Translations under genes and position numbers: made by a program
Part shown: positions 1 to 158 of the stretch, piece after piece
How the letters are laid out: every line of letters starts with the position of its first letter
Position numbering within the stretch: position 1 is the stretch's first letter
The notes under the pieces: model-generated
Seen by the model: only the letters and a program-made list of their open reading frames with translations
Databases searched by the model: none
Told to the model about the DNA's origin: nothing
Assembly (NCBI RefSeq): GCF_003334355.1
Contig: NZ_QOWP01000038.1
DNA length: 30,981 nt
Origin: Escherichia coli
GTDB taxonomy: Bacteria; Pseudomonadota; Gammaproteobacteria; Enterobacterales; Enterobacteriaceae
Strand: one strand, 5' to 3'

Positions 1-158
1 AGCAGGGGATTGACCGGATGGCCGGACGTCACTCCGCCGGGGCACACCGAACAGGCCACGCCGGTGGGGGCACCAATACGTACCCCGGCTGAACCCTGAA
101 CAATGCTACCGCCATACTGCGTCATGTCGCCCTGACGCGCTGCCGGTTTTCCGCTCAT
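1..158 (-). CDS. Rhs-family protein, N-terminal PAAR-like region (partial; start codon at 158-156, gene continues leftward out of window)
   Basis: Reverse-strand translation from ATG at 158: MSGKPAARQGDMTQYGGSIVQGSAGVRIGAPTGVACSVCPGGVTSGHPVNPL, matching the N-terminus I recall for E. coli RhsA-type proteins; AAGGA Shine-Dalgarno 7-10 nt upstream on the minus strand. Only 52 codons in window. Confidence 0.6.
   Translation of the reverse strand, partial: MSGKPAARQGDMTQYGGSIVQGSAGVRIGAPTGVACSVCPGGVTSGHPVNPL

Follow-up and report, generated by a model that had tools for sequence, protein, structure and literature searches.

One question raised by the left edge of a 30,981-nucleotide stretch of the Escherichia coli contig NZ_QOWP01000038.1 (assembly GCF_003334355.1), referred to here as the window, is what kind of gene begins there, downstream of rpmE, and in what state that gene continues beyond the window. 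A first-pass annotation had read the first 158 bp as the beginning of an Rhs-type gene in a polymorphic-toxin locus at a position where K-12 has none. The minus-strand translation of window 158 to 3 is free of stop codons and gives MSGKPAARQGDMTQYGGSIVQGSAGVRIGAPTGVACSVCPGGVTSGHPVNPL, 52 residues that agree exactly with the peptide quoted in that annotation, and the frame is still open at the left edge, with 52 codons inside the window. The alignment to the K-12 Rhs proteins that the annotation had proposed, made here with sequences read from the MG1655 loci, shows 52 of 52 identical residues with each of RhsA, RhsB, and RhsC and 49 of 52 with RhsD. Furthermore, residues 1-52 align with positions 1-52 of the NCBIfam family NF041261 ('RHS element core protein') at an E-value of 8.2e-28 (96.8 bits), and the peptide stands as the N-terminus of an E. 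coli Rhs core protein. A chance open reading frame is ruled out by the same family match and by the 52/52 identity.

The base composition changes at the start of the gene, with 65% GC in the Rhs coding stretch against 34% in the 112 bp upstream. A Shine-Dalgarno sequence, AAGGA, can be read at window 166-170, with the ATG 7 nt further on, and the nucleotide match to K-12 rhsB is confined to window 1-172 (98.8% identity), which takes in the coding start and 14 bp before the ATG. Window 1-158 contains the first codons of the core gene of the rpmE-yiiX Rhs element, which is already known. The features discussed below are collected in Table 1.

Table 1. Coordinates of features in the window and, where a locus or strain is named, at the corresponding site in related genomes.
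Feature	Position	Strand	Basis or remark
Rhs core gene, 5' end, codons 1-52	1..158	-	translation; identity to RhsA/B/C; NF041261
His47-Pro48 codons, predicted N-terminal autoproteolysis site	15..20	-	homology to Tse5
Single PAAR-type repeat, residues 2-29, SGKPAARQGDMTQYGGSIVQGSAGVRIG	72..155	-	aligns with the last PAAR repeat only
Translation initiation region	159..172	-	read from sequence; K-12 rhsB has the same stretch
AT-rich (35% GC) site-specific leader, right-hand end of the inserted DNA	173..270	-	
rpmE 3' end and intrinsic terminator	271..318	-	homology to Rhs-free genomes resumes; K-12 alignment
rpmE (ribosomal protein L31), upstream neighbour	319..531	-	annotation of matching genomes
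L31 leader of rpmE	537-589	-	Rfam, above gathering threshold; expected at rpmE
ClpQY (hslVU) promoter element	5201-5258	+	Rfam, above gathering threshold; expected at hslVU
213-codon ORF between fieF and the ogr end of the P2-like prophage	21285-21923	-	
DNA invertase gene	28727-29317	-	phrog_125, E 5e-101
Opposed tail-fibre C-terminal cassettes	29345-29851 and 30583-30876	+ and -	
Tail-fibre assembly gene	29908-30510	-	
713-codon 'mini-Rhs' of relatives	loci L001 14017-16158 and L002 14017-16158	-	deletion junction at gene nt 1462-1478
dsORF-f3 (left of the window)	loci L005 4650-4972, L008 5839-6160, L009 4542-4863, L001 13694-14015		
TIGR02117-family lipoprotein gene, 207 codons, intact between yiiX and rpmE in PK-F-10122	locus L014 2116-2739		

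The Rhs gene starts 160 bp downstream of the rpmE stop codon and on the same strand, and the next gene beyond rpmE, priA, starts at window 733 on the plus strand. In K-12 the stop codon of yiiX lies 60 bp from that of rpmE. Homology to K-12 runs through priA, rpmE, and the rpmE terminator (A7-GCGCCGTGCGGCGC-T6 at window 278-304) and ends at about window 265-270; Rhs-free genomes align with the query only from window 265/271 onward. Whether judged against K-12 or against a strain with another gene at the site, the right junction of the inserted DNA falls at window 270/271, which confirms that the Rhs gene occupies a position where K-12 has no Rhs element. Immediately inside the junction lies the 98-bp leader (173-270), present in exactly one copy in each of 2177 genomes and absent elsewhere among 5426 complete E. 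coli genomes, and an Rhs start adjoining rpmE occurs in the same number, 2177 of the 5426 (~40%). No match to the leader was found in K-12 or in the TIGR02117 gene of strain PK-F-10122, and a simple promoter scan of the leader returned no sigma-70 consensus promoter.

The earlier description of the Rhs gene as lying where K-12 has yiiX is right about the site downstream of rpmE, but yiiX itself is retained beyond the element, 3.5-9 kb further on, in all carriers examined (the eight for which the far side was fetched). On that far side the inserted DNA of the relatives starts directly after the yiiX stop codon. With the yiiX stop codon on one side of the element and the rpmE terminator on the other, replacement of yiiX by Rhs is ruled out. 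The gap between yiiX and rpmE is thus found in three states: empty (K-12, UTI89), filled by the lipoprotein gene (PK-F-10122), or filled by the Rhs element. Carriers of the Rhs element retain the first 86 bp of the lipoprotein gene at the yiiX end (locus L005 3745-3835), followed by a decayed IS1, and the element must therefore have entered a genome that already had the lipoprotein gene. Derivation of the sequence upstream of the Rhs start (159-270) from that same gene is ruled out, as the two do not match and the surviving 86 bp are at the far, yiiX end.

This site has already been recorded in the literature. Jackson et al. (2009; PMC2935791, Table 3) list an Rhs locus, 'position 11', flanked by yiiX and priA, and assign it to Clade I with a core nearly identical to those of positions 5, 9, and 10, which are rhsC, rhsB, and rhsA. 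The genome paper of E. coli W (PMC3032704, Table 6) places both rhsW7 of strain W and EcolC_4081 of ATCC 8739 in the region b3936-b3937, which is empty in K-12 and in B. These b-numbers are those of the flanking genes, rpmE (b3936) and yiiX (b3937), and the RefSeq product name of the ORF that follows the Rhs gene is 'RHS element protein dsORF-f3'. Presumably the rpmE-yiiX element is the RhsF element of the Hill laboratory, and the name dsORF-f3 follows that laboratory's RhsF naming. The 'RhsF/RhsFI' of a 2025 EHEC paper (PMC7618764) shares the letter but is a different locus (ECs0604, S-loop 44). Membership of the window gene in the rpmE-yiiX element follows from its start beside the rpmE terminator with the site-specific leader. 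The site is already published and common in E. coli and is no peculiarity of this strain. The reading of an Rhs start is correct yet ordinary, and its value is largely one of labelling: annotations should assign the gene to the rpmE-yiiX Rhs element and record one PAAR-type repeat, not a PAAR domain, at its N-terminus.

That last qualification concerns the claim of a PAAR-like spike domain, of which only part can be kept. The PAAR tetrapeptide is present within a G-x-P-A-A-R-x-G-D repeat (residues 3-11 read GKPAARQGD), and residues 2-29 resemble the last repeat of PAAR proteins, aligning with residues 71-98 of 9rce_c, 67-93 of 4jiv_D, and 67-92 of 4jiw_D in the PDB. However, a complete three-repeat domain above family threshold is not found: residues 2-29 match positions 68-94 of the 94 in NCBIfam NF033420 at 17.6 bits, against a cutoff of 124, and the Pfam PF05488 match spans positions 51-69 of 70 (19 residues) with an i-E-value of 0.0084. 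No further PAAR match is found in the first 300 residues of the full-length relative, in which the next domain is DUF6531. Because the scores are low and no further PAAR signal is present, the N-terminus has a PAAR motif but is not a PAAR domain by family criteria, and a full domain is ruled out on the family scores. A prePAAR-type effector, in which AARxxDxxxH is followed by transmembrane segments and then a PAAR domain, was also considered and is not favoured; the motif is nearly there (AARQGDMTQY), but the first 300 residues of the relatives show no PAAR domain and nothing besides DUF6531.

The remainder of the peptide can be compared with Tse5 of Pseudomonas aeruginosa, for which cleavage at Lys47-Pro48 has been demonstrated experimentally (PMC10684867). 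The 47-residue fragment of Tse5 is described as PAAR-like and required for secretion, with residues 30-47 held by the DUF6531 plug and residues 1-29 disordered (PMC10684867). PVNPMLGSK is the start of the Tse5 shell chain 8cp6_B, whose alignment (E-value 2.4e-18) opens at residue 48 of the E. coli protein, in the sequence PVNPLLGAK; residues 48-52 (PVNPL) are thereby aligned with the N-terminal autocleavage site of Tse5. By homology, residues 1-47 are predicted to be a released fragment, the counterpart of Tse5-NT, and the window would hold the counterpart of the whole N-terminal fragment together with the cleavage site and five residues of the plug. Cleavage itself has been shown for Tse5 only, to which the E. 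coli protein is likened by sequence.

Relatives of the protein suggest how a complete gene of this type would function. The short N-terminal piece with its one PAAR-type repeat would attach the protein to the VgrG spike, and would probably be cut between His47 and Pro48 while still held by the DUF6531 plug. The YD repeats would form a closed shell around the variable C-terminal toxin, an aspartyl-protease plug would free that toxin after PxxxxDPxGL, and, by analogy with the family, the T6SS would deliver it; the small downstream gene would give immunity and protect sibling cells. No vgrG, hcp, eag, or DUF1795 chaperone gene lies beside the Rhs gene in the window, where the upstream neighbours are rpmE and priA. 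Linkage to vgrG, hcp, or eag is usual in the T6SS Rhs family, not obligatory. With no such gene adjoining, the Rhs gene falls in the 'neighbourless/orphan' class. This class has been described for E. coli (PMC6730261, PMC7216683).

What follows to the left of the window has to be judged from other strains, in which several forms of the gene occupy the site. In the common form, found in O157:H7, NCTC9040, and TW11681, the gene has 4185 bp (1394 codons) and is followed by dsORF-f3, which starts 1 bp after its stop codon, by an IS1 remnant, and by yiiX. At least 80% of the 6.4-kb yiiX-to-rpmE stretch of O157 is matched by 2083 of the 2177 carriers, the other 94 falling below 80%. The full-length relatives score 2642 and 2631 bits against NF041261 RHS_core, for which the curated cutoff of 2000 bits corresponds to a complete core of ~1250 residues, and YD repeats and the Rhs-associated core are both present. 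DUF6531 occupies residues 46-123 of the full-length relative, and PVNGMDPLGL at residue 1238 precedes a 147-residue tip that matches DUF4329 (E 2.5e-15). Other strains depart from this form: 266917_2 combines another tip and its Sel1-repeat immunity gene with orphan tips and ISAs1; in ETEC6335 the gene is cut by ISEc1 near codon 131; and in 1332KP the core is cut by IS1A at codon 1249.

ATCC 8739 and PSS-12 carry a 2142-bp form, one uninterrupted ORF of 713 codons referred to as mini-Rhs, which differs from the full gene by an in-frame deletion of 2043 bp between two EYDEWG-coding repeats. A common 17-bp EYDEWG-coding stretch links nucleotides 1-1478 of the full gene to nucleotides 3505-4185, and the allele arose by recombination between the two repeats. 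Residues ~494-1174 are missing, which costs the protein over half of its shell and brings the early shell repeats directly against the Rhs-associated core; what remains is the N-terminal piece, the plug, the early YD repeats, the protease plug, and the DUF4329 tip. The shortened protein scores 1148 bits against RHS_core, below the 2000-bit cutoff, and is labelled a pseudogene in RefSeq. The deletion junction occurs in 53 of 5426 complete E. coli genomes. The 713-codon ORF is intact in seven of the eight carriers examined, the remaining one having IS1A in the tip, and the differences between the alleles are ~1:1 synonymous to non-synonymous, with no clear signal of selection.

It is this deletion allele that the strain of the window seems likely to carry, since it is found in PSS-12 and in at least 23 of the 30 genomes that best match window 1-760; with no more than 52 codons of the gene inside the window, the allele state is drawn from relatives. 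PSS-12 is the nearest complete genome, with 8 mismatches in 16,760 bp of the window (99.95% identity), and encodes exactly the PriA protein of the window, being the only complete genome among 16 contigs with the same PriA. The identity to the window is 99.2% for ATCC 8739, and 99.23% and 98.2% for 1332KP (IS1-truncated) and O157 (full-length), the two genomes with other alleles that can be aligned over more than 8 kb of the window. Within the first 330 bp the mismatches number 2 for PSS-12, 4 for TW11681, 9 for NCTC9040, and 9 for 1332KP.

Two other states of the gene have to be weighed against this. That the strain has the common full-length gene of 1394 codons, with the DUF4329 tip and dsORF-f3 at the same site, is favoured by the prevalence of this arrangement among carriers (2083 of 2177 at 80% or more) and by NCTC9040 and TW11681, which are among the best matches to window 1-25000 and have an intact 4185-bp gene. 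However, these two strains show 9 and 4 differences in the first 330 bp to the 2 of PSS-12, and the deletion allele is that of the closest relatives, both over the adjoining 16.7 kb and among those 30 best matches to window 1-760; a full-length gene is accordingly rather unlikely, and if it were present it could be a working 'neighbourless' T6SS effector. Still less probable is a gene at the same site that is disrupted in another way or ends in another tip, after the manner of 1332KP, ETEC6335, or 266917_2: all three states do occur at the rpmE-yiiX site, and 1332KP is the best overall match to window 1-25000, but 1332KP has 9 mismatches in the first 330 bp and an overall identity of 99.2%, where PSS-12 reaches 99.95%, and such states are rare, with 94 of 2177 carriers below 80% coverage as compared with the deletion junction in 53 genomes.

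A different kind of doubt is that the contig ends in a multi-copy repeat, such that the last 158 bases come from another Rhs copy (e.g. rhsB) or form a chance ORF. Both ends of the window do lie in repeated DNA, draft contigs with the same priA stop 17-318 bp from the Rhs start codon, and rhsB-type bases stand at coding nt 78 and 81. Against this, the leader (173-270) adjoins an Rhs start in all 2177 genomes that have it and occurs at no other place, the independent draft contig L016 reads a further 160 bp into this gene, and the NF041261 match excludes a chance ORF. An artefact of this sort is exceedingly unlikely; a mixed assembly could explain the two rhsB-type bases at most.

If the strain carries the deletion allele, as is likely, what the gene encodes is probably in decay and no longer works as an effector. 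With over half of its shell gone, enclosure of the toxin is implausible, and the allele is therefore read as decay, its protein probably being unable to enclose the toxin. There is only a slim chance that the mini-Rhs is maintained as a shortened protein, either a shell-less effector or an internal toxin/immunity module, with which the open frame in seven of eight carriers and the presence of the allele in 53 complete genomes would be consistent. With the deleted allele probable, the gene should not be counted as a working T6SS effector without its full sequence. The claim of an Rhs polymorphic-toxin locus holds for the start of an Rhs core gene, but for a full core with its toxin it is set against the 713-codon deleted allele of the closest relatives.

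The edges of the window deserve comment in their own right. The left end lies in the multi-copy Rhs core (1-172), and the right end (30817-30981) is a 165-bp, 98% identical inverted copy of 29480-29644, within the phage tail-fibre inversion segment. Among the contigs encoding an identical PriA, no longer one from this strain was found; the draft contigs end 17-318 bp from the Rhs start codon, and with repeated DNA at both ends the window is therefore probably a complete short-read contig. The Logan contig SRR3951466_63 is 100% identical to window 143-12931, L016 has five mismatches from the window, and no complete genome is more than 99.4% identical to window 1-330. Two synonymous bases 3 bp apart, A78 and T81 on the plus strand (coding nt 81 and 78), stand out in this region; A at coding nt 78 and T at 81 are the K-12 rhsB allele (GTACGTATT), and all rpmE-yiiX copies compared, including PSS-12 and L016, have G and C there (GTGCGCATT). 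The rhsB-type bases have one of two origins, a short tract of gene conversion donated by another Rhs copy or repeat copies mixed together where the contig ends, and the history of the window may differ from that of other copies at the site.

The gene following the Rhs gene in the common arrangement, dsORF-f3 (107 codons), is presumed to be the immunity gene of the Rhs tip. Pfam gives no match for it, and it does not significantly resemble YhhH, which is encoded beside RhsB. Runs of A8, T9, and G6 occur within the gene, and changes of 1-2 bp in these runs, not the same ones in each strain, shift its frame in O157:H7 (including Sakai), NCTC9040, TW11681, and PSS-12, while the toxin gene stays open. 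Over a 90-bp stretch that includes the runs, 1062 of 2084 genomes match one or other of two intact dsORF-f3 alleles exactly.

Elsewhere in the window, a P2-like prophage adjoins fieF. The ORF at 21285-21923 matches the PADLOC defence component PD-T4-10_B (E 1.3e-34, profile positions 139-346 of 353), has no PHROG match and no adjacent partner A gene, and may represent an anti-phage gene, lone or truncated, where the prophage ends. Window 28727-30981 is an invertible host-range segment of the Mu G / P1 C type within the P2-like prophage; its invertase gene is truncated in the relative 1332KP.

How the window gene compares with known systems can be stated for each part of the peptide and for the locus. 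Canonical PAAR proteins, such as VCA0105 of Vibrio cholerae (4jiv_D) and c1882 of E. coli (4jiw_D), share with it the PAAR tetrapeptide and one repeat of the form GKPAARxGDxxxxGGxIxxGxxxVxIG, but they have three repeats whereas the window peptide has only the last one and scores far below the family thresholds. Of solved structures, that of the T6SS Rhs effector Tse5 (PA2684, PDB 8cp6) comes closest to the full-length relative (E 1.7e-128), and the two proteins have in common the DUF6531 plug, the cleavage-site sequence PVNPxLGxK, and an N-terminal piece that is likewise 47 residues long. The residue before the cut is Lys47 in Tse5 and His47 in the E. coli protein, and Tse5 is encoded beside a vgrG of its own and ends in a pore-forming tip, in contrast to the DUF4329 tip of the rpmE-yiiX site.

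A further comparison is with RhsA, RhsB, and RhsC of K-12, of the RhsA-B-C-F core subfamily, whose first 52 residues are those of the window and to which full-length genes at the rpmE-yiiX site are ~98% identical in the core; they differ in chromosomal site, upstream leader, C-terminal tip, and immunity gene. With the element known as Jackson position 11, rhsW7, or EcolC_4081, the window shares the flanking gene, the junction at the rpmE terminator, the single-copy leader, and the N-terminus, the only difference visible in the window being the two synonymous rhsB-type bases at coding nt 78 and 81.
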